Assembly: GCA_964371665.1 (NCBI GenBank)
Contig: CAYJNP010000001.1
Span: forward strand, 37,862 to 78,729
DNA length: 40,868 nt
Reading direction: 5' to 3'
Source of the DNA: an uncultured Eubacteriales bacterium
Lineage (GTDB): Bacteria; Bacillota; Clostridia; Oscillospirales; Acutalibacteraceae
Below the pieces are notes generated by a model that saw only the letters and a list, made by a program, of their open reading frames with translations, searched no databases and was not told where the DNA came from. The stretch's first letter is position 1; each line of letters opens with the position of its first letter. The translations under genes and the position numbers were made by a program. Below, piece after piece: positions 5,954 to 31,944 of this stretch.

Positions 5954-5968
5954 TATAATAAATTGTTC
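5954..5968 (-). promoter_or_regulatory. phage promoter-like motif GAACAATTTATTATA (upstream of the helicase gene)
   Basis: One of 12 copies of GAACAAT-N-W-ATTATA. Intergenic and oriented toward the downstream gene. Confidence 0.55.
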
Positions 5969-7928: not shown

Positions 7929-7943
7929 ATTATTATAATATAT
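7929..7943 (-). promoter_or_regulatory. AT-rich motif ATATATTATAATAAT upstream of the RNAP gene (possible second promoter class)
   Basis: The RNAP gene has no GAACAAT motif upstream. This element resembles the TTGTTTATATATTATTAT 18-mer shared by 16533..16550 and 22131..22148. Confidence 0.25.
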
Positions 7944-7963
7944 AGATATAATTTTTTTTGATA

Positions 7964-7998
7964 AAAAGAACAAGAAGAAATTAATCTTCTTGTTTTTT
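7964..7998. terminator. bidirectional rho-independent terminator
   Basis: 10-bp perfect stem aacaagaaga (7969-7978) / tcttcttgtt (7985-7994), extendable with A:T and G:U pairs. Flanked by an A-run on one side and a T-run on the other. Overlaps the stop of the small ORF 7981..8151. Confidence 0.7.
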
Positions 7999-8151
7999 AT
8001 TTTTTGTTATTAAAGATTCATTTAAGTATTTTAAATTATCACCGAATTTACATTCTTTGATTAATTCTACTTTTTCCGATTCTGTTAATTGAACTTTTTT
8101 GATTTTATTTATTTCAATTTGTTCATTTAGTTTTTTAAATAATTTACTCAT
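7981..8151 (-). CDS. small hypothetical protein (56 aa), not in the ORF track
   Basis: ATG at 8151..8149 is preceded by SD GGTGA at 5-nt spacing (GATCGGTGAACTAAATG). Translation: MSKLFKKLNEQIEINKIKKVQLTESEKVELIKECKFGDNLKYLNESLITKNKKQED. The stop lies inside the terminator hairpin. Confidence 0.55.
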   Translation of the reverse strand: MSKLFKKLNEQIEINKIKKVQLTESEKVELIKECKFGDNLKYLNESLITKNKKQED

Positions 8152-8166
8152 TTAGTTCACCGATCC

Positions 8167-11100
8167 TTATTTGAAATTTTTTTCACTAGGAGTTTTTGCG
8201 ATACGTTTTGGAGTTGCTGATTCAATAACTGTTTGTTCAACATCATCAGCTTTTTCTGGATCAACTAAATCTTTATTATCTGCTTCGAAAGATTCTTCAT
8301 CTGGTTTACCTTCTTTAACTGCATCTGGTGCGAAGTTAACTCCAGCTTCACCTTCTGTTTCTTCTTTCATAATTTTACTATGATCCGCAGGAACTTCGGT
8401 TAAATCTTTTCCCATTTTTACAAGTTTATTTTCAAGTTTTTTAATTTTTTCTTGAATTTTATCTTGTTTAACCATATCAGATTCTTTTTGTTTTTTAACT
8501 TCTAAACTTCCAATTTTTTCTTTAATTTTTTGAACTTTTTTCTCATTCAATGCTTCTAAAATGAAATCGTCGATAACAACTTCTTCATTTAAAGCTTTTT
8601 TAATTAAAGTTAAATTAGTTTCATTAGCTTCAAAATCATTTGATTCAGAAAGGAATTCCATAATTAATTCATCAGAGAATCCTTCAATTAATGCTTGTTC
8701 AACATCATCAGCTTTTTCTGGATCGATTAAGTCTTCATTATCAGCTTCAAATGCTTTTTCTTGAGGTTCCCCTTCTTTAACAGCATCTGGTGCATCATTT
8801 GTTCCTAATTCTTCCATTTCTTTTAATAATGTATTAACATTATCATTAGCAACATCTACATATTTTTCTTGAATAGCATTGAATAATCTATTTGCATTTC
8901 CTAATACTTTTACATATTCTTCGAATAATTTATCTTCATTAGCTTCAGCTAAACTTAAAGCTACTTGTTCAGTTAATTTTTCTACTCTATCTTCAGAATG
9001 ATTGAAATAACCATAACCTAAAGCAACCGCTTCTTCAAAAGAACTATAAGGTTTTGCTTCATCATAATCAACTTTTGGAGCTGAATATGGAACTGCTTCA
9101 TCATATGGAACTGCTTCAGAAGTTTTAGATTCTTGTTCAATTTTTTCTACACCTTGATCACCAGCTGGTTCACATGGACATTCATTATCATCTTTATCAG
9201 TAGGAGTTTCACAAGCACACTCTTTACCAGTATCGTTGTTGATAATTTCTTCTCCAACTTCAGTAACTGATTCTTGTACAACTACTTCTTCTTTAGAATC
9301 TTCTTTTTCTAAATCTTCTACTTTATCTTCTAAATTTTCGATTTTTTCTTCTAATTTTTCAATATCATCTTCAACTGATTCTTTTATAGCGTTAATTTTT
9401 TCTAATTTACCAGTATTTTTTTCAGCTAATTTGATTTCATCTTCTTCATATTTTTTTAACTCTTTATCAGATTTCATATCTTTTTTAAGAGCTTTATATT
9501 CTTTTTTCAATTCTTTTAAATTAGAATTATGTTGTTTTGCTGCTTTATCACCTAATAAACCTTTAATTTTAGATTTTAAAGATTCCTCTAAAGTTTCATA
9601 GTCTTCACGGATAATTTCAACATTTTCTTTTGAAGGTGCATAACCACATTCTTCAAGAACTTTATATAATTCAAAATCAGAAACATTTTCGATAACAACT
9701 TGTTCTACGTCATCAGCTTTTTCTAAATCGTCAACAACTTCATCATTTTCTGCTTCAAAAGCTTTTTCAATAGCATCACCTAATTTAACAGCTTCTGGTG
9801 CATCATTTGTTCCTAATTCCTCTAATAATTTAACAAATAAATCATTACTTTCTTTCAATGAAACAAGATTTTTTTCAGAAGTTTTATAACCAGTGAATTC
9901 TAATAATTGATATAAATTATAATCGTTTATTAATGAAGCATTTATTAATTTATCTTTTATTTTTTGTGCTTCTGCTTCTTTTTTATTTTTTTTATCTAGT
10001 TTCTTTTGTGCTTTGGCGTTTTCTTTTTGTATCTTTGCAGCTCCAGAATATTTATCTTCTTGTTCTTTTTTGTAATTTTTTACAGATTCTGAATTTTTTG
10101 CATCGATTTTATTTTTATTATCTGATATTTTTTCATCTTGTATTCTTCTTTTTTCAGATTTTTTTAATTGTTTTACTTCTTTCCCGGCTTGTCTTTCATA
10201 TTTAGCTGTTTTTCTAGATACTCTACTGAAAGGATTAAATGCATAACCACCTAATGCTTCATTAATAGTCTCATATGTTTTTAAATTTTCTAAATTTTCT
10301 TTTGAAGGTTCATAACCGCATTCTTCAAGAATTTTATATAATTCAAAATCATTTAAAGATTCAATAACAACTTGTTCAACATCATCTGCTTTTTCTAAAT
10401 CATCAACAACTTCATCATTTTCTGCTTCAAATGCTTCTTCATCAGAAGGTCCTTCTTTAACTGCATCTGGTGCAAAGTTAACTCCAGCTTCTTCTTCGTT
10501 TAATAAATCTAAAATATTATCGAAAGATTCACCGATTGTATCTAACATATCATCAGAAACTACATCTAATTCTGGTGTTTTAGCATCTTCTAAATCTTCT
10601 AATTTATCTTCTAATTCTTCTTTATGATTTGGATCAAAGTCTGGATCAACAGATTTTTTATAGAAATCTTCTGGTACTAATCTATCTTCATTTAAATCTT
10701 CGAATTCTACAACTGTTTTATAATCTTCACGTAAAGTTTTAAGATTTTCTGAATCAGTATCGAAACCATATTTTTCTAATAATTTATATAATTCAAAATC
10801 AGAAAGATTTTCAATTAATACTTGTTCAACATCATCTGATTTATCTACTTTAACAACTTCATCATTAGTTGCTTCAAATGATTTATCATCTGGATTTCCT
10901 GGTTTTACAGATTCAGGAGCATGGTTAATTCCAGCGATTTCTCCAGTTGATTCTTTCATACTTTTAATTTCAGCATCAGCATATTCTTTACCTTTTAGAT
11001 GTTTTTTAGATTCAACATCATCTTCGTGTTTTTTTGCAAGTTTTAAGAATTTAGGATCTTTCATAGCTTTATCTGCTGCTTCAACATCTTTATCTTCTTT

Positions 11101-11520
11101 ATTTTCTATGATAACTTGTTCAACATCATCTGATTTATCTACTTTAACAACTTCATCATTATTTAAAGAAAAACTTTGCTCATCTGGATTTCCTGGTTTT
11201 ACAGCCTCGGGAGCATCATTTGTTCCTAATTCTTCATTTAATTTTTTTAATTTATTCATTTGATTTTCATCCTTTCCTTTTGATTCGCCAAAATAATTTA
11301 CATTATCTAAATCAATATCTATTTCTTTATTTCCAACAGCATTGAAAACATCATTATCTCCGTTTTCTTTTACTTCATCATTATCTTCATAATTGTTTTC
11401 TTCAGATTGTAATATTTCAGCTGCGGTTTCACTTTCTAAACTTTCAAGAATTTTATCTAATTCTTCTTGAGCTTTAGCTTCGTTTAAAAGAGCTTCTAAT
11501 TCTTTTACATTTTTACTCAT
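8167..11520 (-). CDS. 1117-aa highly acidic repeat protein (candidate internal head/scaffold-type polyprotein)
   Basis: Contains six copies of the module [GT]N[DHF]AP[ED][AS]VK.G...[ED]..F.....[ED].[VI]..[ED]K[AS]DDVEQ..IE. Four copies are followed by a SDFELYK.LEE.GY..S.EN helical unit. Also has a central Lys-rich segment and a CxC..CxC cluster. Preceded by a GAACAAT promoter and a split-SD leader, like the capsid, sheath and protease genes. Confidence 0.85.
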   Translation of the reverse strand: MSKNVKELEALLNEAKAQEELDKILESLESETAAEILQSEENNYEDNDEVKENGDNDVFNAVGNKEIDIDLDNVNYFGESKGKDENQMNKLKKLNEELGTNDAPEAVKPGNPDEQSFSLNNDEVVKVDKSDDVEQVIIENKEDKDVEAADKAMKDPKFLKLAKKHEDDVESKKHLKGKEYADAEIKSMKESTGEIAGINHAPESVKPGNPDDKSFEATNDEVVKVDKSDDVEQVLIENLSDFELYKLLEKYGFDTDSENLKTLREDYKTVVEFEDLNEDRLVPEDFYKKSVDPDFDPNHKEELEDKLEDLEDAKTPELDVVSDDMLDTIGESFDNILDLLNEEEAGVNFAPDAVKEGPSDEEAFEAENDEVVDDLEKADDVEQVVIESLNDFELYKILEECGYEPSKENLENLKTYETINEALGGYAFNPFSRVSRKTAKYERQAGKEVKQLKKSEKRRIQDEKISDNKNKIDAKNSESVKNYKKEQEDKYSGAAKIQKENAKAQKKLDKKNKKEAEAQKIKDKLINASLINDYNLYQLLEFTGYKTSEKNLVSLKESNDLFVKLLEELGTNDAPEAVKLGDAIEKAFEAENDEVVDDLEKADDVEQVVIENVSDFELYKVLEECGYAPSKENVEIIREDYETLEESLKSKIKGLLGDKAAKQHNSNLKELKKEYKALKKDMKSDKELKKYEEDEIKLAEKNTGKLEKINAIKESVEDDIEKLEEKIENLEDKVEDLEKEDSKEEVVVQESVTEVGEEIINNDTGKECACETPTDKDDNECPCEPAGDQGVEKIEQESKTSEAVPYDEAVPYSAPKVDYDEAKPYSSFEEAVALGYGYFNHSEDRVEKLTEQVALSLAEANEDKLFEEYVKVLGNANRLFNAIQEKYVDVANDNVNTLLKEMEELGTNDAPDAVKEGEPQEKAFEADNEDLIDPEKADDVEQALIEGFSDELIMEFLSESNDFEANETNLTLIKKALNEEVVIDDFILEALNEKKVQKIKEKIGSLEVKKQKESDMVKQDKIQEKIKKLENKLVKMGKDLTEVPADHSKIMKEETEGEAGVNFAPDAVKEGKPDEESFEADNKDLVDPEKADDVEQTVIESATPKRIAKTPSEKNFK
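8221..11232 (-). repeat. six dispersed in-frame coding repeats within CDS 8167..11520
   Basis: Copies at about 11101..11232, 10720..10938, 10270..10488, 9598..9822, 8596..8814 and 8221..8349 (aa 97-140, 195-267, 345-417, 567-641, 903-975, 1058-1100). Also visible at DNA level, e.g. cttgttcaacatcatctgatttatctactttaacaacttcatcatt near 10811 and 11114. Confidence 0.85.
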
Positions 11521-11589
11521 TTTATCACTAATTTTACAAAAATATTTATTTGGAATAAGCGAACCAAATTTGTAAAATATTATCTCCTT
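11518..11589 (-). promoter_or_regulatory. structured leader with split ribosome-binding site (acidic repeat gene)
   Basis: The minus strand reads AAGGAGAT (11589..11582), then AAT, then ATTTTACAAA (11578..11569), then a 28-nt loop containing TTTGG/CCAAA, then TTTGTAAAAT (11540..11531), then 10 nt, then ATG (11520). The 10-bp clamp is perfect. No SD lies next to the ATG. Confidence 0.55.
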
Positions 11590-11626
11590 TGTTGGAATTT
11601 TGTGCTTATTATTTTATATACTATTT

Positions 11627-11641
11627 TATAATAGATTGTTC
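11627..11641 (-). promoter_or_regulatory. phage promoter-like motif GAACAATCTATTATA
   Basis: A copy of the 15-nt motif, about 105 nt upstream of the ATG of 8167..11520. Confidence 0.55.
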
Positions 11642-13082: not shown

Positions 13083-13097
13083 TATAATATATTGTTC
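13083..13097 (-). promoter_or_regulatory. phage promoter-like motif GAACAATATATTATA
   Basis: A copy of the 15-nt motif placed just downstream of the terminator at 13117..13154 and about 20 nt from the ATG of 12719..13063. Confidence 0.55.
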
Positions 13098-13523: not shown

Positions 13524-14135
13524 CTAGTCAAAATAATTTATTGTTGCTTCCTTCTCCATTATAAGAATATTTTCTTCTGGTTTTAATATTGTATATTTTC
13601 TGCTAGGCATTAAAAATTCTTTTTTAGAAATATTAAATTCTTTATCTGTTATAATTTCTCTAATAAGTTTTCTATCAGATGAAACAAATAAATTCCAATT
13701 ATTTTTTTCTAAATATTCTTTTATTAAATTTCTTGTTAATAAAATTGTTTTTATTTTTCTATTTTTAAACGATTTTATTATTTCTATTTGTTTTTCGTTA
13801 TAACAAATAACTGTAATTTCTTCTATTACATTATTATTTTCTAATGCAGAATTTTTAATAACTTTTTTAAAAAAATCTGTTATTTTGTTTTTAGAAAAAT
13901 TAGAATTATTTTTTATTTTTTCTAATATTTTTTTGAAATAAAATACATTCCCAGAATCAACTAAAAAATCTCTTTGTTTTCTTTTATTAAATTCTTTTTC
14001 ATTTTTTACATAATAATTTTCTTTTGGAAACATGTAAGAAAATTTCAACCAATTATATTTTATAAATAAATAAATATCATAATATTCTTTATTATAAACA
14101 ATATCGTCAAAATCTAAAACTATTCTTCCTTGCAT
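13524..14135 (-). CDS. hypothetical protein
   Basis: 203-codon ORF. SD GGAAGTGA immediately follows the promoter motif. The N-terminal IVLDFDDIV only loosely resembles HAD motif I. Confidence 0.65.
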   Translation of the reverse strand: MQGRIVLDFDDIVYNKEYYDIYLFIKYNWLKFSYMFPKENYYVKNEKEFNKRKQRDFLVDSGNVFYFKKILEKIKNNSNFSKNKITDFFKKVIKNSALENNNVIEEITVICYNEKQIEIIKSFKNRKIKTILLTRNLIKEYLEKNNWNLFVSSDRKLIREIITDKEFNISKKEFLMPSRKYTILKPEENILIMEKEATINYFD

Positions 14136-14147
14136 TATATCACTTCC

Positions 14148-14162
14148 TATAATAAATTGTTC
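14148..14162 (-). promoter_or_regulatory. phage promoter-like motif GAACAATTTATTATA
   Basis: The motif is followed directly by GGAAGTGATATAATG, implying a leader of only about 15 nt. It sits just downstream of the terminator at 14178..14206. Confidence 0.55.
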
Positions 14163-16561: not shown

Positions 16562-16576
16562 TATAATATATTGTTA
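16562..16576 (-). promoter_or_regulatory. promoter-like motif variant TAACAATATATTATA
   Basis: Matches the 15-nt motif except for the first base. Placed just downstream of the terminator at 16594..16628. Confidence 0.45.
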
Positions 16577-16633: not shown

Positions 16634-18076
16634 TTACATAAATAATGATTTGCTTGGTTTCATTAATTTAGAACGTTGACCACTTTGTGTAGCGTTAATA
16701 GAATTAACGTTTATAATTAAATTTTTAACTTGTCTTAATTCTTTAATATATAAAGCTAAAGAATTGAATCTTAATGCAACAGTTTGTGTCATATATTTAG
16801 CAGATAAGAATAAATCACTAATTCTTTGTTGTAATGCAGATGTGAATGCAATATTAGAACCTAATTGTGCAAATTTATATCTAACATTTTCAATTTCTTT
16901 ATAAAGTTTTTCGAATTTTGTTTTCATTTTATCCATTTTTTTATATAATTGTTCTGCTTCTTTTTCACGAACATTTACAACTTTTAATATATTAATTAAT
17001 TGATTATAAGTTGCTGAAGTTATCATTGAAATTTCCATACCAGTTACATTTCTTATATATTGTTTTGTGTTCATACTTGAAAGTATATCTGAAATTAAAT
17101 TATTACATTCTTTAAATGCTTTTCCTAAATTATCAGTATTTATTTTAGTTCTTACTAAATTATCTTTCATTCTATCTGATGAAATAACATCTACACTAAC
17201 AGCTTTTCCACCGATAGCAAATTTAACATCACCAGCATATGATTTAATATCATCGAATGTTCTTTTTGTCATATTTAATAATAATTCTAAATCATCACTA
17301 CCGAATAACATTTCATCATTTGAACCAATTGAATTGTCGAATATATCAAAGAAATGTGTTAATTTACTTTTTAAATTCATTAATTCATCTGATACATCTA
17401 TTTTATTAATAGAAATATCTCTAAAAGTTGTTCTTTCATTTTCATTTAAACTAGATTCAGAAACCATTACATTTCCTTTAAGACTTCCAAGAACTACTTC
17501 TAAATCTTCCATATCTTTTTGAGAAATATTATCAAACTTTAATTTTGATTTATGATCTTGATAATCTACCATATATTTATTTTCAATTTTTTTAACTTTC
17601 TCAAATTTTAATTTTAAATCTTCTGGACTAATTTTATTTTTTGGATTTTCTAATCCAACTAATCCTCTTAATGATTTACTAAAAATATCTATTAATTTTA
17701 TAGCAATATTTTTAATCCATTTAACAATACTACCCAAGAATAAAGTTAAATTTTCTATAATACTATTATTAGTTGATAATTTTTTAACATCAACACGAGA
17801 AATTTCCGGATTATAAACTGGACTTTGTTGAGAACCAGACTTTCCTAATTCTAATCCTAATTTAAAAATATCTTTAAAAGTGTCTAATGCATTAGTACCT
17901 GTTAAATCAGTAGTAGTTTCATTTAATATTTTTTCTTCAACTTTTAACCAGTTAACCATAGCAGTATAACCTTCTTGAAGTTCTTTTTGTTCTCCCATAA
18001 GATATTTAAATTCTTTATTGAATTGTTCGTCTAAGAATTGTTCATAGACGTTTAGTTTGAATTCATTAATATTCAT
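16634..18076 (-). CDS. hypothetical coiled-coil protein, scaffold candidate by position
   Basis: Lies immediately downstream of the gp21-like protease, matching the T4 order 21-22. SD AGGTGATTAT. Helical, charged sequence with no diagnostic motif. Confidence 0.6.
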   Translation of the reverse strand: MNINEFKLNVYEQFLDEQFNKEFKYLMGEQKELQEGYTAMVNWLKVEEKILNETTTDLTGTNALDTFKDIFKLGLELGKSGSQQSPVYNPEISRVDVKKLSTNNSIIENLTLFLGSIVKWIKNIAIKLIDIFSKSLRGLVGLENPKNKISPEDLKLKFEKVKKIENKYMVDYQDHKSKLKFDNISQKDMEDLEVVLGSLKGNVMVSESSLNENERTTFRDISINKIDVSDELMNLKSKLTHFFDIFDNSIGSNDEMLFGSDDLELLLNMTKRTFDDIKSYAGDVKFAIGGKAVSVDVISSDRMKDNLVRTKINTDNLGKAFKECNNLISDILSSMNTKQYIRNVTGMEISMITSATYNQLINILKVVNVREKEAEQLYKKMDKMKTKFEKLYKEIENVRYKFAQLGSNIAFTSALQQRISDLFLSAKYMTQTVALRFNSLALYIKELRQVKNLIINVNSINATQSGQRSKLMKPSKSLFM

Positions 18077-18095: not shown

Positions 18096-18995
18096 TTATT
18101 TTCTTTTTTTCAATAAACTTGAATATTCTTTTTTATCATTTTGTAAAGATTCATTTAAAATATTATTTCTAACATTTTTTAAAAGATAATCTTCTAATTT
18201 TACTGTTTTTACTACGTTCCCGTTTTGTAATTTTACAGTACCGAAACTATTTGAATAAGTTTCCATTAATAATTTATCAGAATCATCATAGAAATATAAT
18301 TTACTAAAATGAACTAATTCACCTGAACCATTATCAATTAAATTTTCATAAATTAAACCTGAATTTTCTAAATTTTCTGTTTCTAATAAACCTTCATTTA
18401 AATTTAAAGATTCTGAAACAAAAGACTCATTTAAACAAGCTGATTCGTTAACACTTAAGTTTCCAATTTCTCTCATATAAGCTTTATCATGACTTGGATT
18501 CATAACCCAATCCCAACCAACAATTCTTAATCCTGGTTTTACAACAGTTCCTCCACCAAATCCTGGAGCAACATCACCTTGAGCTCTTAAACTAAATCCG
18601 ACTTGAACGCCTTGTTCTATTAATCCAGCCATACCTTTACCAACATCATTGTTTGCTGTTTCAAGATCACCAACTAATAAATCGCCTTCCCACCAAAGTT
18701 TTCTAATAATATGAGAGAATTTTAATGGATTAAGTTGACTTTGAACAGCCATATCTTTATTAGTAGGGTGTCCTGCTTCTCCACCAAAGTTCAATGTAGC
18801 CATACCTTTAGTAACAGTGAAATCTTTCATACCTTGTTCAAGGACGTTTTTAGGATAAGTTCTTCTATTTCTATTTTCTCTATTAGCCTCTTGAATTACA
18901 GCAGTAAATCTTATAGTTCCTAATGGAGTTTTTTTAAAATTTCTAATTTCAGCTACATGAGCTGACTCTAGAATTAAATATTTTCCTGTATTCAT
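18096..18995 (-). CDS. prohead core protease (T4 gp21 family)
   Basis: VIQEANRENRNRRTYPKNVLEQGMKDF aligns with T4 gp21 QAEVVNRNKRLYPKRILEKAVKDY. GGEAGHPT aligns with GELNHPP (catalytic His). KLWWEGDLLVGDLE aligns with DMWWKGNDVYGRARV. VGFSLRAQG aligns with PGVSSRGLG (catalytic Ser). I use the ATG at 18995 (MNTGKYL); the track's GTG at 19001 lies inside the leader spacer. Confidence 0.88.
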   Translation of the reverse strand: MNTGKYLILESAHVAEIRNFKKTPLGTIRFTAVIQEANRENRNRRTYPKNVLEQGMKDFTVTKGMATLNFGGEAGHPTNKDMAVQSQLNPLKFSHIIRKLWWEGDLLVGDLETANNDVGKGMAGLIEQGVQVGFSLRAQGDVAPGFGGGTVVKPGLRIVGWDWVMNPSHDKAYMREIGNLSVNESACLNESFVSESLNLNEGLLETENLENSGLIYENLIDNGSGELVHFSKLYFYDDSDKLLMETYSNSFGTVKLQNGNVVKTVKLEDYLLKNVRNNILNESLQNDKKEYSSLLKKRK

Positions 18996-19055
18996 GTACA
19001 CTATGCTTTACATTTCAAACGGCTAAGTCCTACCTATGACGTAAAGCGTCTCCTT
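18993..19055 (-). promoter_or_regulatory. structured leader with split ribosome-binding site (protease gene)
   Basis: The minus strand reads AAGGAGAC (19055..19048), GCTTTAC (19047..19041), a 29-nt loop, GTAAAGC (19011..19005), 9 nt (ATAGTGTAC), then ATG (18995). Confidence 0.55.
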
Positions 19056-19121
19056 TTCTAAATGTTTTTGACTTATTATTTATTACAAAATATCAAATTT
19101 TATACTTATTATTTTATTTTA

Positions 19122-19136
19122 TATAATTTATTGTTC
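19122..19136 (-). promoter_or_regulatory. phage promoter-like motif GAACAATAAATTATA (protease operon)
   Basis: A copy of the 15-nt motif. Divergent partner of 19238..19252. Confidence 0.55.
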
Positions 19137-19237
19137 GGAAAAATAGGTAGAATTTAATAAAATATAGCCTTTTTATATTTTTTTACCCTTTTTTTATAAA
19201 ATTTACTATTTTTTTAACTTTTTTATATTACAATTAC

Positions 19238-19252
19238 GAACAATAGATTATA
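19238..19252 (+). promoter_or_regulatory. phage promoter-like motif GAACAATAGATTATA
   Basis: A copy of the 15-nt motif, 75 nt upstream of the ATG at 19327. Confidence 0.55.
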
Positions 19253-19326
19253 TAAATAGTATTGCAACACTAATTATGCTTTACATTTTATATGGTTTTA
19301 ATAAAGTGGAAAGGACGGATGTAATT

Positions 19327-19947
19327 ATGAAACACTTTTTTACAAACGGACTATTGAACATTAAAGAAGATAAAAATTCAAATTCCTCTGAAAAAACTTT
19401 TGAAAAGGCTATTAAAACAAATCTGTTAGAAAATGAAAATATTGTAGCAGAAGAACAAGTTGAAGAACCGCAAGAAATTGTGGAAGAACCTGTAGTGGAA
19501 GAAGAGCCTGTTGATGATGGATATGTCGAAGAAGAAATTCAAGATGATCTATCTTATATGGAACAACTACCCCCTAATTCAAAAGAAAATTCAACGGAAC
19601 ACGAAAAAATGAAATCTTTATTTATTTGTTCTGAAAATCTTTATGATTATTCTAAATTAGTAGAGCAGAATATTAAAAATATTGATAAAAGTACGATTGA
19701 TAGAGTGACTGTTGTAAAATTAGCTCAATTAGAAGACAAAATGAATCTTTATATTAATAAAATAAAAGATTTTGTTGCAGAAGTGTTTATTAGAGAAACA
19801 TATGAAAAAAATTTATATTTATTTTATACTCTAAGAAACGAATTTATTACTATAATAAAAATAATAAGAAAATTATTGAAATTAGAAACAATGGAACATG
19901 ATGATATTTCAAAGGATTCGCAAGAAGGATTAATTGAAATTAAATAA
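19327..19947 (+). CDS. acidic hypothetical protein upstream of the capsid gene (possible scaffold/internal head protein)
   Basis: I prefer the ATG at 19327 (MKHFFTNG) because the SD block GAAAGGACGG lies 8 nt upstream. The track start at 19276 has no SD. Contains an acidic tract EEQVEEPQEIVEEPVVEEEPVDDGYVEEEIQDD. Confidence 0.65.
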   Translation: MKHFFTNGLLNIKEDKNSNSSEKTFEKAIKTNLLENENIVAEEQVEEPQEIVEEPVVEEEPVDDGYVEEEIQDDLSYMEQLPPNSKENSTEHEKMKSLFICSENLYDYSKLVEQNIKNIDKSTIDRVTVVKLAQLEDKMNLYINKIKDFVAEVFIRETYEKNLYLFYTLRNEFITIIKIIRKLLKLETMEHDDISKDSQEGLIEIK

Positions 19948-19985: not shown

Positions 19986-20076
19986 AAGGAGAGACTTTAC
20001 ATATAGTTGGTTAGTTTACCATGGGAATAACAATTAGTTATCTATAAATATAAAAAGTAAAGTATATAAAATTATG
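19986..20076 (+). promoter_or_regulatory. structured leader with split ribosome-binding site (capsid gene)
   Basis: AAGGAGAG (19986-19993), ACTTTAC (19994-20000), 56 nt with further imperfect pairing, GTAAAGT (20057-20063), 10 nt (ATATAAAATT), then ATG (20074). Confidence 0.6.
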
Positions 20077-21894
20077 AACTTTAAAACAAAATATGATAGC
20101 ATTAATGAAATATTTTTAACTACAGACAGATTCTTACAAGAAAGTACAGGATATGGATTAGTTGGTGAAGATGCTACAATTAAAAGACTTTTCACAAATG
20201 AAGAAACGAGAGAATCAATCATTACTTCAATGGTGGAAGGTGTAAGTGCTGACGAAGAAGTACAATTAAGACAATTATTAGAAAACACTGCTAGAAGAAC
20301 TATCCAAGAGTCTGCTGGTGGAATCGCTGGTTTAGCTTCATTAAATATGCCAGTAATTAGAAAATTATGGTACAAAACTAGAGCTAAAGATGCTTTAAAA
20401 ACTGTTGTTGCAAATAGTCCAACTATGGCTGTTGCTTATACAAAACCATATTTATTCAGATATGTTGGTGGAGTAAAAGAAACTAAAGATTTACCTTATG
20501 GTGCTATGTATGCTAACGCTGCTTTAAATGCTGCTAATGGTTTAGATTTATATAGTGGTGATGGTTTAGATTTCCAATCAGTTACATCAATTAAACCTTT
20601 AACTGATGCTGCTGGTTTAAACGGAACAATGGTAACAATCGATTACTGTGAAGGTAGCGATATTGACGAAATCGACAGAGATTACTTTGTAGATAAAGTT
20701 GAAGTTTATGCTGCTGCTGTTAAAGTTGTTGATGGTAAAGTTGTAAATGCTGATGATACAGATGCTGTATTAGAAGAAAGCTATTACGTAGGTTTAGAAA
20801 AACCAATCGCTGATACAATTTATGGTACATTAATCGTTCCTTCAACTGCTACTGTTGATGCTGGTAAAGTTGCTGGTCAAATCGTTGTAAATGTTGCTAT
20901 GACTAAAGGTACTGCAGATATTTCTGTATTAAAAGGTGCTTTTGGTGCTTTAAAAGATGCTGTAAGTGGATCAGTTGTTGTTTATACAAGAGCTCATTTA
21001 TCAGCTGAAAAAAATGTTGCTTCATGGTCAGTTGCTACTGAAATTGCAAAACAAGAAATTACAATTGGAACTGGTACACATATCAATGCTCCAATGACTA
21101 TTGAATCTATTCAAGATTCAGAAGCATTATACAAAATTGACTTAACAGCAGAAATTACTGATGTTATGACTCAAGTATTTGCTCAAAGATTAGATGAAGA
21201 ATTAATTGACTTCATGATTAGAAAATTCGTAAACAGACCAACTAACGTTGAATTTAGAAATAACCCTGCTTATACTGGTGCTGCTGCTCATACATATACT
21301 TTTGATGTAGCTACAATGACTGGTTATACTGGTGGACCAAAAGCTTGGCGTGAAGAATTAAAACCTGTTATCGATGACGCTGCTATCGCTATTATGGAAG
21401 AAAGTAGATTCCAAGAAGGTACATTTGTATTAATTTGTCATCCAAAAACTGCTCAATTATTAAAAAATCCAGAATGGCAATATAAAGGTGGAAACGGTGG
21501 AAACGTTGATGGTACTTCTGTATCTTTCGATACTGCTGTATTTACTTCAGATTCATTCATTTATAAATTAATTAGTTCATTCAATTACCCTAAAGGTATG
21601 ATCGGATTATCATTTATCCCAGCTGGTGAAAAACAATTATCACAAGTTTATTACCCATATGCATTCACTATGAGTACAAGTGCTGGTTATAGAGATCCAA
21701 ATCAAGAAAACACTCCATCATTAGTTATGACTAAACGTCATGCAAAATGGGAATTCACTCCTACTTCTGCATTAATCGTTATCAAAAACTTAGATGGTAC
21801 TTCAAGATTCCATGCTGGTAACTTATGGTCTAACCAATTCTTAAGTAATGCTGATGTTCAAAACGGAGATTTAATTTATACACCAAAACCTTAA
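20074..21894 (+). CDS. probable major capsid protein
   Basis: Noticeably higher GC and strong codon bias (GCT/GGT/GTT/ACT) indicate very high expression. It lies divergent from the protease/scaffold operon, is preceded by an acidic protein gene, and is followed by a strong terminator. The 606-aa size fits large-phage capsid proteins. I recall no diagnostic motif, so the call is contextual. Confidence 0.65.
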   Translation: MNFKTKYDSINEIFLTTDRFLQESTGYGLVGEDATIKRLFTNEETRESIITSMVEGVSADEEVQLRQLLENTARRTIQESAGGIAGLASLNMPVIRKLWYKTRAKDALKTVVANSPTMAVAYTKPYLFRYVGGVKETKDLPYGAMYANAALNAANGLDLYSGDGLDFQSVTSIKPLTDAAGLNGTMVTIDYCEGSDIDEIDRDYFVDKVEVYAAAVKVVDGKVVNADDTDAVLEESYYVGLEKPIADTIYGTLIVPSTATVDAGKVAGQIVVNVAMTKGTADISVLKGAFGALKDAVSGSVVVYTRAHLSAEKNVASWSVATEIAKQEITIGTGTHINAPMTIESIQDSEALYKIDLTAEITDVMTQVFAQRLDEELIDFMIRKFVNRPTNVEFRNNPAYTGAAAHTYTFDVATMTGYTGGPKAWREELKPVIDDAAIAIMEESRFQEGTFVLICHPKTAQLLKNPEWQYKGGNGGNVDGTSVSFDTAVFTSDSFIYKLISSFNYPKGMIGLSFIPAGEKQLSQVYYPYAFTMSTSAGYRDPNQENTPSLVMTKRHAKWEFTPTSALIVIKNLDGTSRFHAGNLWSNQFLSNADVQNGDLIYTPKP

Positions 21895-22186: not shown

Positions 22187-22891
22187 TTATGCACCTTTTA
22201 TTTTTCTTGAATAAGTTAGTATTGAATTTTGAGCAAATTTTTCTATTAATGCTTCTCTTTCTGCTTTTGCATTTTCAACTTGATCTAAAAATAAACTTAT
22301 ATTACCATAAGGTGATTCTATATTTTCAAATCTTTTTCTAATAGGAAATAATGTTACTAAAAAATCTAATAAACATAATTGTAGAAAATGCTCTCTCAAT
22401 CCAGTATCAATTGTACTCAAATGTTCTGGATGAACAGCCATTATCATTGCTAAAGCATAACTTGATGACCATAATTTTGGAAAAATTTCGACTTTATTTG
22501 GTGGAATAAATACTGGTGTTATTCTTGTTTGTGTATATGATTGAAAATCAGCATATAATTGATTATTGACTGGATCTGTTGAATTCATCAATGCTAAATT
22601 ATTATAACTATTTAGATCACTTAAATAAACTTCAGAAACACCGACGATTCTTAATCCATCAACATTAGGTATTGTATATACATTTTTTCCACGAATTATT
22701 TCATCTTTTTCTCTTAAACCTACTCTAAATTTAAATGGGAAATATTTACTAAATGTTACTAGAGATTCTTGGAATACTGTTTTCATCATTTCTTCATCAG
22801 ATATCTCAGCTTCAATATCATAAACAACATCACCAATATTTCTTTTTATATAACGGATTACTTCCGTAGGATTTAAACTAAACATAGCCAT
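22187..22891 (-). CDS. hypothetical protein (probably virion-associated, by context)
   Basis: I use the ATG at 22891 (MAMFSLNPTE). The track start at 22900 is a TTG. The GAACAAT motif lies 25 nt upstream. Confidence 0.65.
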   Translation of the reverse strand: MAMFSLNPTEVIRYIKRNIGDVVYDIEAEISDEEMMKTVFQESLVTFSKYFPFKFRVGLREKDEIIRGKNVYTIPNVDGLRIVGVSEVYLSDLNSYNNLALMNSTDPVNNQLYADFQSYTQTRITPVFIPPNKVEIFPKLWSSSYALAMIMAVHPEHLSTIDTGLREHFLQLCLLDFLVTLFPIRKRFENIESPYGNISLFLDQVENAKAEREALIEKFAQNSILTYSRKIKGA

Positions 22892-22915
22892 ATAAATCAA
22901 CTCTTTTCTTTATAT

Positions 22916-22930
22916 TATAATATATTGTTC
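22916..22930 (-). promoter_or_regulatory. phage promoter-like motif GAACAATATATTATA
   Basis: Back-to-back with 22940..22954. The two GAACAA cores form an inverted repeat separated by 9 bp. Confidence 0.55.
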
Positions 22931-22939
22931 AATTTTACC

Positions 22940-22954
22940 GAACAATTTATTATA
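22940..22954 (+). promoter_or_regulatory. phage promoter-like motif GAACAATTTATTATA
   Basis: A copy of the 15-nt motif, 30 nt upstream of the ATG at 22985. Confidence 0.55.
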
Positions 22955-28120: not shown

Positions 28121-28928
28121 TATATCGACCACTTTCTATTTTTTTATTATATAATGTATTGTTCTCTATAATTTCTTCAATTTTAGCTTTAAGTAATCTA
28201 TTTTTTTCTAATTCTAAATCATGATCAGTCATTAATGAAATAAGATGTAAAAATACTGCATTTACCCTTGATATATTTTTATTTACAATAATATCAAAAT
28301 ATAACATTCCAATAAATTTTTTAAATCCTTTTATTTTATGACATAAATTAGTAGTTAATTGTTGTCTTATTTTTCTTAAATCTTTATGAACTTGTTCTAC
28401 TGTGAAAATTAATTTGCCAGCTACAGCTTTTGTCATAAATATTTCAAAATTTACAAAGTCTAACGATAATACAGTTTCTATTAAACTATTTTCACCATGT
28501 TGCATTCTTAAATATTCAATAGTTTCTTCAATAGGGACATATCCTTTAATATTTAAATCACTTGTTCCTGTTATATCAAATAATTGATCTGGATTTTGTA
28601 ATTGTAGTAATTTAAAATCATTTTCATCGTCATTTAATAAACATTTAACTAATCTTTCAACATTTGCAATTGTCCATCCAGGTAAAAAACTTCTGAATCT
28701 TATATATAAAATTGCTTCTAAATTTTCTTTATCATCTATTGTTGTTTTAACTTGCTCTATAATTTCTTTTAGTACTGAAAATTCAGCATTAGAAAATTTA
28801 TAAAATAATTCTTTTTGTTCTAGTTTTTCTTCTTGAAAAATTCTTGTTTCATTTTCATTTAAATTAACTTTACCTAAAATATCAGTTAAAGCATTTTCTT
28901 TCTCATAGTTTTTCTTATTAATATTCAT
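28113..28928 (-). CDS. hypothetical protein
   Basis: 271-codon ORF whose start overlaps the upstream gene's end by 11 nt. No recognisable motifs. Confidence 0.65.
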   Translation of the reverse strand: MNINKKNYEKENALTDILGKVNLNENETRIFQEEKLEQKELFYKFSNAEFSVLKEIIEQVKTTIDDKENLEAILYIRFRSFLPGWTIANVERLVKCLLNDDENDFKLLQLQNPDQLFDITGTSDLNIKGYVPIEETIEYLRMQHGENSLIETVLSLDFVNFEIFMTKAVAGKLIFTVEQVHKDLRKIRQQLTTNLCHKIKGFKKFIGMLYFDIIVNKNISRVNAVFLHLISLMTDHDLELEKNRLLKAKIEEIIENNTLYNKKIESGRYND

Positions 28929-29782: not shown

Positions 29783-29797
29783 TATAATAAATTGTTC
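29783..29797 (-). promoter_or_regulatory. phage promoter-like motif GAACAATTTATTATA
   Basis: A copy of the 15-nt motif just downstream of the terminase stop/hairpin. Confidence 0.55.
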
Positions 29798-31872: not shown

Positions 31873-31887
31873 TATAATATATTGTTC
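31873..31887 (-). promoter_or_regulatory. phage promoter-like motif GAACAATATATTATA (terminase)
   Basis: A copy of the 15-nt motif, 19 nt upstream of the terminase ATG. Confidence 0.55.
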
Positions 31888-31929: not shown

Positions 31930-31944
31930 GAACAATAAATTATA
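31930..31944 (+). promoter_or_regulatory. phage promoter-like motif GAACAATAAATTATA (sheath/tube operon)
   Basis: A copy of the 15-nt motif. Divergent partner of 31873..31887. Confidence 0.55.

Follow-up and report, generated by a model that had tools for sequence, protein, structure and literature searches.

The window, as we call the whole 40,868-nucleotide stretch of DNA analysed here, contains a long minus-strand ORF whose product raises the question of how a phage might use so large and so acidic a protein, built from repeated modules. The initial annotation, made from the sequence, proposed that the protein is packaged into the prohead and cut at the module ends, or that it acts as a DNA mimic. 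The predicted product is 1117 aa long, with 16.7% E, 10.3% D and 13.3% K (D + E = 27%), a net charge of −141 and a pI of 4.4. It is very acidic and predicted to be largely disordered. The ORF and its six acidic modules, of 44–45 aa each, are as follows; a slash directly after the Glu of a motif marks a proposed cleavage point.

8167..11520, minus strand: complete ORF with an ATG start, encoding the hyper-acidic 1117-aa protein
11104..11235, minus strand: acidic module 1, aa 96-139, ending VIIE/N
10810..10941, minus strand: acidic module 2, aa 194-237, ending VLIE/N
10360..10494, minus strand: acidic module 3, aa 343-387, ending VVIE/S
9688..9822, minus strand: acidic module 4, aa 567-611, ending VVIE/N
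8683..8814, minus strand: acidic module 5, aa 903-946, ending ALIE/G
8221..8352, minus strand: acidic module 6, aa 1057-1100, ending TVIE/S

Each of the six modules scored 55–65 bits against the module HMM, and at the DNA level they are six 126-nt copies with identities of 63–83%. All six terminate in DDVEQ-x-[VIL]-I-E, and the next residue is N, S or G. The pattern [LIV][LIV]E[NSGA] occurs 8 times in the protein, versus 1.6 ± 1.2 times in shuffled sequences. The hydrophobic-x-Glu motif is kept at the module ends of distant relatives. The whole-family alignment of 107 module copies includes 92 ungapped ones, of which 75 have the terminal Glu; the residue before it is V, I or L, and the residue after it is mostly S, E, A or N. 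Near-invariance in the module is confined to P in NDAP, D-V in DDV and E in V-x-E, and the Glu of the module's APE is found in only about half of the copies.

Structure prediction, which the initial annotation had proposed as a check, was carried out with AlphaFold. In two runs, one on the full-length protein (module pLDDT ~30) and one with a 44-sequence module alignment (pLDDT 54–64), the modules showed no secondary structure, and they are predicted to be disordered. PDB sequence and fold searches with the window protein revealed nothing similar. Comparison between module copies gave dS values of 0.4–1.4 and dN/dS values of 0.21–0.78; the copies are old, and constrained despite their predicted disorder.

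Between and around the modules lie helical and short-motif regions, including five helix-loop-helix units.

11386..11520, minus strand: N-terminal helix, aa 1-45 (AlphaFold helix 2-45, pLDDT 70-88)
10696..10809, minus strand: helix-loop-helix (HeH-like) unit 1, aa 238-275 (AlphaFold helices 241-250 and 257-275; weak Pfam LEM match)
10255..10359, minus strand: helix-loop-helix unit 2, aa 388-422 (AlphaFold and DNA repeats)
9922..10197, minus strand: Lys-rich region, aa 442-533, a single long helix in the AlphaFold model
9841..9930, minus strand: orphan helix-loop-helix unit 3, aa 531-560, with no preceding module (repeat family D5)
9556..9687, minus strand: helix-loop-helix unit 4, aa 612-655 (AlphaFold)
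9301..9552, minus strand: charged helical region, aa 657-740, probably a coiled coil (AlphaFold)
9166..9222, minus strand: CxC-x10-CxC cysteine knuckle ECACETPTDKDDNECPCE, aa 767-785
9043..9120, minus strand: (A/K)PY mini-repeats, aa 801-826
8587..8682, minus strand: degenerate helix-loop-helix unit 5, aa 947-978 (AlphaFold)
8416..8568, minus strand: C-terminal coiled-coil-like helices, aa 985-1035 (pLDDT 84-91)
8170..8220, minus strand: conserved basic C-terminal tail SATPKRIAKTPSEKNFK

The N-terminal helix carries a motif common to the family (L-E-x-L-L-x-E-A ... I-L-E-[ES]-L), and across 26 N-termini L12 is invariant and E14 and E26 are at least 90% conserved; this segment could be a targeting segment or a propeptide. 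Homology of the helix to the N-terminus of gp153 from phage AR9 was not supported by hhalign (3.6%). Clusters of Cys are also present in the relatives, at positions that are not fixed. The helices at aa 985-1035 are the best-confidence part of the AlphaFold model, and the basic tail has the family motif KR[IV]AKT.SE.N. The architecture given in the initial annotation was confirmed: the six modules lie within 1–2 residues of where it put them, and the ends VIIEN, VLIEN, VVIES, VVIEN, ALIEG and TVIES were all found. A Lys-rich island does lie at aa ~430-530 (its net charge is positive), the cysteine knuckle is present at aa 767-785, and the PY mini-repeats take the form (A/K)PY. To the four module-following helical units it described, the orphan at aa 531-560 is added.

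The helix-loop-helix unit, (S/N)DFELYK.LEE.GY..S.EN, directly follows four of the six modules. It resembles HeH, SAP and LEM domains in its repeat of ~35 aa, its pattern L-S-D-x-E-L-x-x-x-L-x-x-x-G, and its predicted 10-residue helix, 5-6-residue loop and 15-20-residue helix. In the sub-model of unit 4, the helices span residues 53-63 and 69-89 (pLDDT 80-86). The units differ from these domains in their sub-threshold Pfam LEM score (16.5 bits at best, below the cut-off of 24) and in Foldseek comparison of the sub-model with the PDB, which gave nothing better than E 6; the SAP and Rho_N profiles did not match. The HeH/SAP/LEM assignment is not supported by the Pfam threshold or by Foldseek.

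An exhaustive profile search returned 57 relatives of the protein. The survey of module copy number envisaged in the initial annotation, run on these relatives, gave 1–8 modules per protein. Common to all relatives found is a helical domain of ~80 aa, referred to here as the gp153 domain.

8803..9045, minus strand: helical gp153 domain, aa 826-906 (AlphaFold helical hairpin, pLDDT ~80)

Comparison of the close family with the AR9/BpSp/LPJP1 group by hhalign gave 94.1% (E 1.2e-7), and a domain HMM including the window protein gave scores of 45 bits for AR9 gp153, 35 for LPJP1 and 33 for BpSp. AR9 gp153 belongs to PHROG 26909, "virion structural protein" (E 1.4e-56), which was matched directly by 14 of 55 relatives; it was not among the matches when the window protein itself was compared with PHROGs by hmmscan at E ≤ 1. 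Profile–profile comparison and intermediates place the window protein in PHROG 26909 / AR9 gp153 at the superfamily level. The 1117-aa protein is therefore no orphan: with 57 relatives and homology to AR9 gp153, it is by sequence a module-bearing variant of a family that is known but uncharacterised. The earlier statement that no characterised family was known remains true of the module but needs correcting for the whole protein, which has the PHROG 26909 / AR9 gp153 domain and groups with at least 57 metagenomic proteins. Members of the family range from 99 aa to ~1290 aa, with no obvious tie to capsid size, and in the small AR9-type proteins [F/L/Y]-x-E/A is conserved ~25 residues from the N-terminus.

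Gene order was compared across phages. In the window it runs 114 aa, 246 aa, 100 aa, the 1117-aa gene, RNA polymerase (RNAP) beta' (623 aa) and helicase (477 aa), and in the distant relative P0053 it runs 119 aa, 245 aa, 87 aa, a large gene, beta' (626 aa) and helicase (471 aa). In AR9 the order is gp153, gp154 (non-virion RNAP beta'), gp155 and gp156 (helicase). The position directly upstream of the gene for the C-terminal part of the non-virion RNAP beta', with a helicase gene farther downstream, is common to the window, AR9, BpSp, LPJP1 and P0053 loci. By position and sequence, the window gene is assigned as the orthologue of the 99-aa AR9 gp153 (PHROG 26909). AR9 gp153 has been found in virions: it is annotated as "virion protein" in GenBank, and g153 has been called a virion-protein gene, with late transcription detected by primer extension (PMC5312081). 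The window gene is flanked by the following elements.

11628..11640, minus strand: promoter-like motif AACAATCTATTAT of the AR9 late type AACA-N6-TA, 108 nt upstream of the ATG
7981..8151, minus strand: conserved 56-aa ORF directly downstream of the gene
7969..7994, minus strand: terminator-like hairpin with a T-run, closing the transcription unit

The AR9 late-promoter consensus was taken from PMC5312081. The promoter motif AACAATNNNTTAT occurs at 15 sites in the window versus 1.35 expected, and is also found upstream of the protease, capsid, terminase and sheath genes and of the orthologues of the window gene. The DNA polymerase and helicase genes are also preceded by a AACAATNNNTTAT-type promoter. 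The window gene is separated from the beta' gene by a terminator and by another motif, of early-like type, which places the two in separate predicted transcription units, and the downstream 56-aa ORF apparently shares the unit of the window gene. Homology, synteny and promoter type mark the product as a predicted late virion protein from a jumbo phage of the AR9/PBS1 type, and the virion association put forward in the initial annotation is backed by homology and synteny with AR9 gp153.

The enzyme proposed for processing is encoded ~7 kb away.

18096..19001, minus strand: prohead protease, Peptidase_S77 (Pfam), T4 gp21 family

Its match to Pfam Peptidase_S77 (E 3.9e-15, 56 bits versus a 27-bit cut-off) agrees with the gp21-family identity given to it at first reading. 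The window gene is ~7 kb from the capsid genes also, and lies amid replication and transcription genes; an acidic 223-aa ORF (19276..19947) sits between the protease and capsid genes, in the classical position of a scaffold. The propeptide of the capsid protein has [I/L]-Q-E/S just ahead of the conserved core, in common with AR9, and two further hydrophobic-x-E-[SG] sites. Glu makes up 17% of the window protein, and hydrophobic-x-Glu is accordingly common in it (52 occurrences of [LIV].E, versus 37 ± 5 in shuffles), so that the presence of the motif is by itself weak evidence of cleavage. A protease-processed head protein is plausible because of the kinship with gp153 and because the module-end motif fits a head-maturation protease. 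Our inference, to which we give about an even chance, is of a late virion protein, probably residing in the head interior and probably cleaved by the prohead protease.

Relative to the 99-aa gp153, the protein has been enlarged ~11-fold through insertion of disordered acidic 45-aa modules, helix-loop-helix units and long charged helices; a conserved N-terminal helix and the ~80-aa gp153 domain are kept. According to the proposal, the precursor would be taken into the prohead interior, where the S77 protease would cut after the Glu of V-x-E/(S/N/G) at every module end, and possibly also at the N-terminal LL-x-E/A and at SF-E-E/A ahead of the gp153 domain. The expected products are ~7 pieces of 11–38 kDa, a small N-terminal peptide and the basic 17-aa tail. 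Head proteins of SPN3US lose short (20–24 aa) and long (111–254 aa) propeptides, the long ones through multiple cuts (PMC10052503). By analogy with these long propeptides and with T4 core proteins, the acidic disordered pieces would mostly be lost from the head, either ahead of DNA packaging or in its course, and the virion would retain the gp153-like domain.

Four other explanations were weighed against this one. The protein may remain uncleaved in the virion, its conserved disordered modules serving as short linear motifs for repeated docking on a partner, for example the inner face of the capsid, the portal, the virion RNA polymerase or DNA-binding proteins; the V-V-V-E run, with its acidic flanks, could supply this partner with a beta-strand, and the modules would tether or organise partners. 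Disorder combined with sequence constraint, conservation of module positions beyond the Glu (P of NDAP, D-V), a copy number of 1–8 as predicted by valency tuning, and the same evidence of virion association all suit such a multivalent protein, which we nevertheless consider rather unlikely. What is best conserved is precisely a hydrophobic-x-Glu with a small residue after it, sites of this type are found again at the family N-terminus, before the gp153 domain and in the capsid propeptide, and many intact copies with a net charge of −141 would be electrostatically costly beside DNA. Complete loss from the mature virion is predicted for a T4 gp22-like scaffold or core, which would fill and shape the prohead and then be fully degraded and expelled. 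In T4, gp21 cleaves gp22, gp67 and gp68, and the head loses most of their fragments (PMC7411985); the window protein is highly charged and rich in helix and coiled coil, with many candidate cut sites, and no scaffold is yet assigned in the window's phage. However, the AR9 orthologue is a 99-aa protein described as a virion protein, the length of the family members shows no obvious relation to capsid size, the acidic 223-aa ORF already holds the classical scaffold position, and the window gene does not adjoin the protease and capsid genes. A scaffold is improbable on these grounds.

A DNA-mimic or anti-restriction role was raised by the initial annotation on account of the extreme negative charge. 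On an anti-defence reading, acidic fragments, packaged and ejected with the genome, would titrate host DNA-binding defences such as restriction enzymes, nucleoid proteins or uracil-DNA glycosylase (UDG). The probable virion location would suit this role, and packaged anti-restriction proteins exist, among them T4 IPI* and P1 Dar; AR9-type phages, moreover, need UDG inhibition. The idea gained no positive support and is very improbable, as the modules are predicted to be disordered and offer no rigid DNA-like charge array. Neither a folded carboxylate array of the Ocr, ArdA or Ugi type nor any sequence or fold likeness to solved proteins, known mimics included, was found, and the AR9 orthologue is basic and entirely without acidic modules. 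Distinctly improbable, too, is a non-structural factor in transcription or replication, acting for example as a hub or chaperone for the non-virion RNAP or as a nucleoid organiser. Very distant relatives keep the gene next to those for the non-virion RNAP beta' and helicase, the DNA polymerase and helicase genes share its promoter type, and the five helix-loop-helix units have a weak LEM match. Against this, AR9 g153 is described as a late virion-protein gene, the terminator and different promoter motif set the transcription unit apart from beta', and the HeH assignment does not withstand the Pfam threshold and Foldseek.

The preferred reading, a protease-processed head protein, was finally compared with known systems. 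As with T4 gp22, gp67, gp68, IPI-III and Alt, which gp21 processes, the gene has an S77 (gp21-family) protease encoded in its vicinity, hydrophobic-x-Glu sites are conserved at the borders of domains, and the protein is acidic, charged and rich in helix; the conserved short N-terminal segment ending in L-x-E/A may correspond to the T4 capsid-targeting sequence. Unlike the T4 core proteins, to which it has no sequence homology, the window protein is encoded outside the head-gene cluster, is at least four times the size of any of them, and is built of repeated modules. PhiKZ, 201phi2-1 and SPN3US are likewise jumbo phages with multisubunit RNA polymerases, and their head proteins lose propeptides of 20-254 aa through multiple cuts by gp21-like proteases. 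No homology to their inner-body or ejection (E) proteins was detected. The PhiKZ-type proteases cut at A-x-E (S/A/G-x-E) instead of L/I-x-E, whereas the site in the window family is V/I/L-x-E and the A-P-E of the module is not conserved; PhiKZ-type propeptides are N-terminal only, whereas the window modules lie to either side of the conserved domain. The closest likeness is to AR9 gp153, PBS1, BpSp gp218 and LPJP1 gene 121, with which the window protein shares a homologous helical domain of ~60-80 aa with the motif EQ.AL..A.EN.D.L[FY].E...A.RL...I..KY, a hydrophobic-x-Glu-Ala site ahead of the domain, the slot directly upstream of the gene for the C-terminal subunit of the non-virion RNAP beta', and a putative late-type AACA-N6-TA promoter. 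The AR9-type proteins are basic, 98-107 aa long and devoid of modules, helix-loop-helix units and coiled coils, whereas the window protein, with 1117 aa and a net charge of −141, carries the same domain at aa 826-906.

The ORF at 8167..11520 on the reverse strand encodes a 1117-aa protein rich in Glu (16.7%), Asp (10.3%) and Lys (13.3%), with a net charge of -141 and a pI of 4.4. Inspection of the sequence recovered every element listed in the initial annotation (acidic module, helical unit, Lys-rich island, Cys knuckle and PY repeats), with the following coordinates.

aa 96-139, 194-237, 343-387, 567-611, 903-946 and 1057-1100: six acidic modules of 44-45 aa
directly after four of the six modules: helix-loop-helix unit of ~35 aa, LSDFELYK.LEE.GY.PS.EN
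aa 531-560: fifth, orphan helix-loop-helix unit
aa 767-785 (nt 9166-9222): CxC-x10-CxC knuckle
aa 801-826: PY mini-repeats

The module consensus is EELGTNDAPEAVK.G.P.EK.FEA.N.D....EKADDVEQ.[VIL]IE, and at the DNA level the copies correspond to six 126-nt repeats with 63-83% identity. All six terminate in [VIL]-I-E, with N, S or G as the next residue, and the motif [LIV][LIV]E[NSGA] occurs 8 times in the protein, versus 1.6 ± 1.2 times in shuffled sequences. The repeat architecture and the conserved V-x-E module ends are thus clear features of the protein. Pairwise dS between module copies is 0.4-1.4, with dN/dS of 0.21-0.78, which argues that the modules are old paralogs under purifying selection, and not recent duplicates. 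About 50 nt separate the ATG from the only good upstream Shine-Dalgarno sequence (AAAGGAG, ~11570, within 11521-11640 of the reverse strand); in the orthologs AAGGAGG directly precedes the start, and the ribosome-binding site in the window is displaced. The ATG at 11520 is backed by the N-terminal alignment.

A word-indexed search revealed only two full-length homologs, of 1183 and 1254 aa, one of them on a 322-kb contig. An exhaustive HMMER search with a profile built from the last 300 aa (family cut-off E ≤ 1e-3) returned 57 proteins. About a dozen contain the complete architecture of N-terminal helix, modules, helix-loop-helix units, charged center and a C-terminal tail, KR[IV]AKT.SE.N. The remaining relatives contain mainly a single helical domain of ~75-85 aa, equivalent to aa 826-906 of the window protein and mostly near the C-terminus; many of them also contain the N-terminal helix motif L-x-x-LL-x-E-A ... 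LLEEL, and many contain divergent acidic modules, again terminating in V-V-x-E-(S/E). The initial annotation had proposed a survey of module copy number, and a module HMM detected 111 copies distributed over 32 proteins, each of which has 1-8. Every family member is acidic (D+E 16-33%). The family thus numbers at least 57 proteins, and its architecture combines an N-terminal signal helix with acidic modules, helix-loop-helix units and the domain at aa 826-906.

About 15 of the 57 members contain one or two Gly/Ala-rich hydrophobic (glycine-zipper-like) segments beside the Lys-rich region (examples are P0003, P0007, P0008, P0010, P0011, P0014, P0015, P0035 and P0053), and a few others (P0022, P0040, P0049) contain a classical C-terminal transmembrane segment. 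Neither type of segment is present in the window protein.

Searches of Pfam and PHROGs with the window protein itself gave nothing except a sub-threshold match of the helix-loop-helix unit to Pfam LEM (16.5 bits, below the 24-bit cut-off). The 45-aa acidic module matched no family in the libraries searched, in agreement with the earlier remark that no known family contains it. A tblastn search of 50,697 phage records with the whole window protein gave no hits, the low-complexity filter probably masking much of the query; searches of the same records with three distant relatives or their domains, and two IMG/VR scans with alignments, also gave no match. Fusobacterium phage JD-Fnp4 was considered as a cultured carrier and rejected, since no member of the family is encoded upstream of its RNA polymerase beta' gene.

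A connection to a cultured phage was found through the C-terminal domain. While hmmscan of the window protein alone gave no match to PHROG 26909 ('virion structural protein', a 99-position profile), 14 of 55 relatives matched it. The 99-aa 'virion protein' encoded by g153 of Bacillus phage AR9 matches this PHROG along its full length (E 1.4e-56). An HMM of the domain matched AR9 gp153 with 45 bits, and the equivalent small proteins of LPJP1 and BpSp with 35 and 33 bits, respectively. Profile-profile comparison of the close-family domain with these three small proteins gave 94.1% probability (E 1.2e-7, 57 columns). In each locus examined, the domain is confined to the syntenic ORF. The gene order in the window (114 aa, 246 aa, 100 aa, 1117 aa, beta' of 623 aa, helicase of 477 aa) parallels that at the locus of the relative P0053 (119 aa, 245 aa, 87 aa, the large gene, beta' of 626 aa, helicase of 471 aa), and AR9 g153 immediately precedes the orthologous beta' gene (gp154, a non-virion RNA polymerase subunit). 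The window protein therefore belongs to the gp153 family and is syntenic with gp153, and the PHROG matches, gene order, domain HMM and profile-profile comparison together indicate that it is a ~11-fold expanded ortholog. An orphan-looking giant ORF is thus tied to an experimentally detected virion protein. The similarity of the N-terminal helix to the N-terminus of AR9 gp153 was not significant.

At the equivalent position, ahead of its beta' gene, Yersinia phage phiR1-37 encodes a 347-aa 'phage structural protein' (g101, locus L010 4667-5710). By eye, this protein contains poly-Glu/Lys repeats, followed by a C-terminus that we take to be HU/IHF-like. It showed no similarity to the gp153 domain HMM, and may represent an acidic virion protein that arose by convergence at this conserved locus. 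Literature searches on AR9 gp153, on acidic repeat virion proteins, on BpSp or phiR1-37 proteomics or cleavage sites, and on a capsid structure of PBS1 or AR9 yielded a single useful source, a transcription study of AR9 (PMC5312081).

The window has a G+C content of ~24%, and encodes a T4-type portal, prohead protease, major capsid protein, terminase and tail sheath, together with a split multisubunit RNA polymerase beta', DNA polymerase and helicase. The capsid protein shares 24-32% identity with its counterparts in Listeria phage LPJP1, Bacillus phages AR9 and PBS1, and Staphylococcus jumbo phages, which makes the source a distant, uncultured AR9-like jumbo phage. A ~480-aa ORF directly after the protease gene is conserved in three loci (window 16634..18076, reverse strand; L003 389-1825; L004 3644-5083); it is assigned to no family, and from its position could encode a head-assembly partner. 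The ORF at 19276..19947, considered as a homolog of AR9 g116, showed no similarity. The relative on the 322-kb contig (L001) has an IS605 OrfB / Cas12f-like TnpB gene between the large gene and the helicase gene (18723-19919), and in L001 and L003 the DNA polymerase is apparently split into two ORFs (DNA_pol_B and divDNApol).

Transcripts of AR9 g153, described as a virion-protein gene, were detected by primer extension only from 20 min post infection, and the AR9 late promoter consensus is AACA-(6N)-TA/G (PMC5312081). The motif AACAATNNNTTAT, with the wider form (G)AACAATNNNTTAT(A), extends this consensus and occurs at 15 sites in the window, versus 1.35 expected.

AACAATNNNTTAT sites 1-8: 5955-5967, 11628-11640, 13084-13096, 13533-13545, 14149-14161, 16563-16575, 19123-19135, 19239-19251
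AACAATNNNTTAT sites 9-15: 20029-20041, 22917-22929, 22941-22953, 28151-28163, 29784-29796, 31874-31886, 31931-31943

Thirteen of these are intergenic and oriented toward the downstream gene, the exceptions being 13533-13545 and 28151-28163. One site lies 108 nt upstream of the large gene, which thus has a late-type promoter motif, and its orthologs in four other loci have the motif 42-55 nt upstream. It also precedes the protease, pre-capsid ORF, capsid, terminase and sheath genes, as well as those for DNA polymerase and helicase. Since the motif extends the AR9 late consensus, promoter recognition by the non-virion RNA polymerase may be conserved in this distant clade. Downstream of the large gene, the following features precede the beta' gene.

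7981..8151, reverse strand: conserved 56-aa ORF, with its ATG at 8151, 16 nt past the stop of the large gene (ends 8167)
7969-7994, reverse strand: terminator-like hairpin
7935-7945, reverse strand: motif CTATATATTAT, before the beta' gene

CTATATATTAT is similar to the early promoters annotated in AR9, whose consensus is AAATATATATTAT. Because a late motif lies upstream, and a terminator-like hairpin and an early-like motif precede beta', the large gene is probably a separate late-type transcription unit, neither early nor co-transcribed with beta'. Similar TTTATATATTAT motifs are present upstream of the DNA polymerase gene, where the late motif is also found, and of ORF 22187..22900. An ORF of 56-59 aa (M.KLFK.LNEQIEV.KIK..P.TES...) directly 3' of the large gene is also present in three related loci (L001 13766-13945; L004 12720-12893; L003 10886-11281).

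A full-length AlphaFold model, based on 13 sequences, had a mean pLDDT of 51, with confidence varying along the protein as follows.

aa 2-45: N-terminal helix, confident (pLDDT 70-88)
five helix-loop-helix units: four moderately confident (pLDDT ~60-80), the orphan at 531-560 low
aa 442-533: Lys-rich region, predicted as one long helix
aa 842-906: gp153 domain, a helical hairpin (pLDDT ~80)
C-terminal coiled-coil-like helices: pLDDT 84-91
six modules: without secondary structure (pLDDT ~30)

A second run took one module with one helix-loop-helix unit and an alignment of 44 module-copy sequences; here too the module lacked secondary structure (pLDDT 54-64), and the helix-loop-helix unit was confident (80-86). 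Foldseek searches of the PDB with both models gave no match below E 2.8, and PDB sequence profiles gave only composition-driven matches to Zuotin (E 0.01-0.08). The absence of secondary structure in both runs and of a PDB match suggests that the modules are conserved intrinsically disordered segments, and not small folded domains.

The T4 gp21 cleavage consensus is L/I-x-E. The T4 gp21-family prohead protease reported in the initial annotation was confirmed by a match of the ORF at 18096..19001 (reverse strand) to Peptidase_S77. Substrates of T4 gp21 are gp22, gp67, gp68, the internal proteins and Alt (PMC7411985). The related SPN3US enzyme cuts after A-x-E, preferring V at P4 and S at P1', and removes short propeptides of 20-24 aa and long ones of 111-254 aa, the latter by multiple cuts (PMC10052503). 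Over 107 aligned module copies, the best-conserved columns are a P (80 copies), D-V (91 and 98 copies) and the run V-[VIL]-[VI]-E. Of the 92 ungapped copies, 75 retain the final Glu, and the residue after it is S (37), E (20) or A (11). The A-P-E of NDAPEAV, considered as a phiKZ-type A-x-E site, is an unlikely cut site, because its Glu is present in 52 of the 107 copies and is replaced by Asp in three of the six window modules.

The propeptide of the capsid protein (20074..20320, forward strand, ~80 aa) contains three hydrophobic-x-E-[S/G] sites in common with AR9, one of them [I/L]-Q-E|S directly before the conserved capsid core, and one A-x-E site also in common; the capsid maturation cut is likely after T-I-Q-E79, before SAGGIAGLASL. 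The small AR9-type proteins contain a conserved [F/L/Y]-x-E|A-[NS]-[VI]-V-R ~25 residues in, and the large proteins a near-invariant LL-x-E-[AS] at residues 11-15. S-L-K-E-A usually precedes the gp153 domain, and is S-F-E-E-A in the window protein. The motifs surviving across this fast-evolving family are mostly 'hydrophobic-x-Glu-small', a circumstantial fit to T4-type specificity. The motif [LIV]-x-E, common in any Glu-rich protein, occurs 52 times in the window protein, versus 37 ± 5 in shuffles.

From these patterns, we infer that the precursor would be incorporated into the head interior and cut by the S77 protease after the Glu of V-x-E at the module ends, with the acidic pieces lost and the gp153 domain retained. 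The precise candidate boundaries are E14, E139, E237, E387, E611, E946 and E1100. Cuts at E14 and all six module ends would give fragments of 1.6, 14.0, 10.9, 17.2, 25.7, 37.9, 17.4 and 1.9 kDa, all acidic save a basic 17-aa tail. If real, these cuts would show which sites the prohead protease of the AR9-like clade recognizes, and would be an extreme example of propeptide or core expansion in the heads of jumbo phages, whose assembly is poorly understood.

The same conservation is open to other explanations. A V-V-V-E run with acidic flanks could equally be a strand-forming binding motif, making the protein an uncut multivalent binder and its conserved disordered modules candidate multivalent binding motifs. 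A scaffold that is completely degraded is disfavored by the AR9 ortholog being a 99-aa virion protein, and by the extremely variable length of the family. A tape-measure protein was rejected on the size of the same ortholog, and because the gene lies outside the tail genes. An ejected DNA mimic or decoy, the former also raised in the initial annotation, gained no positive support, and the modules are predicted to be disordered. A transcription- or replication-associated factor is a further rival.

A bolder extension of V-x-E processing, which we think improbable, is that a tiny internal virion protein has become a giant disordered polyprotein in metagenomic AR9-like jumbo phages, from which the prohead protease would free 1-8 conserved acidic modules in the head, yielding packaged acidic peptides of a distinct class. 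Such peptides might be electrostatic spacers setting DNA packing and ejection pressure, or co-ejected decoys against host DNA-binding defences; if true, either role would represent a new mechanism, the engineering of capsid content through modular expansion. The window protein is best classified as a new and greatly enlarged variant within a virion-protein family that is known but functionally uncharacterized.
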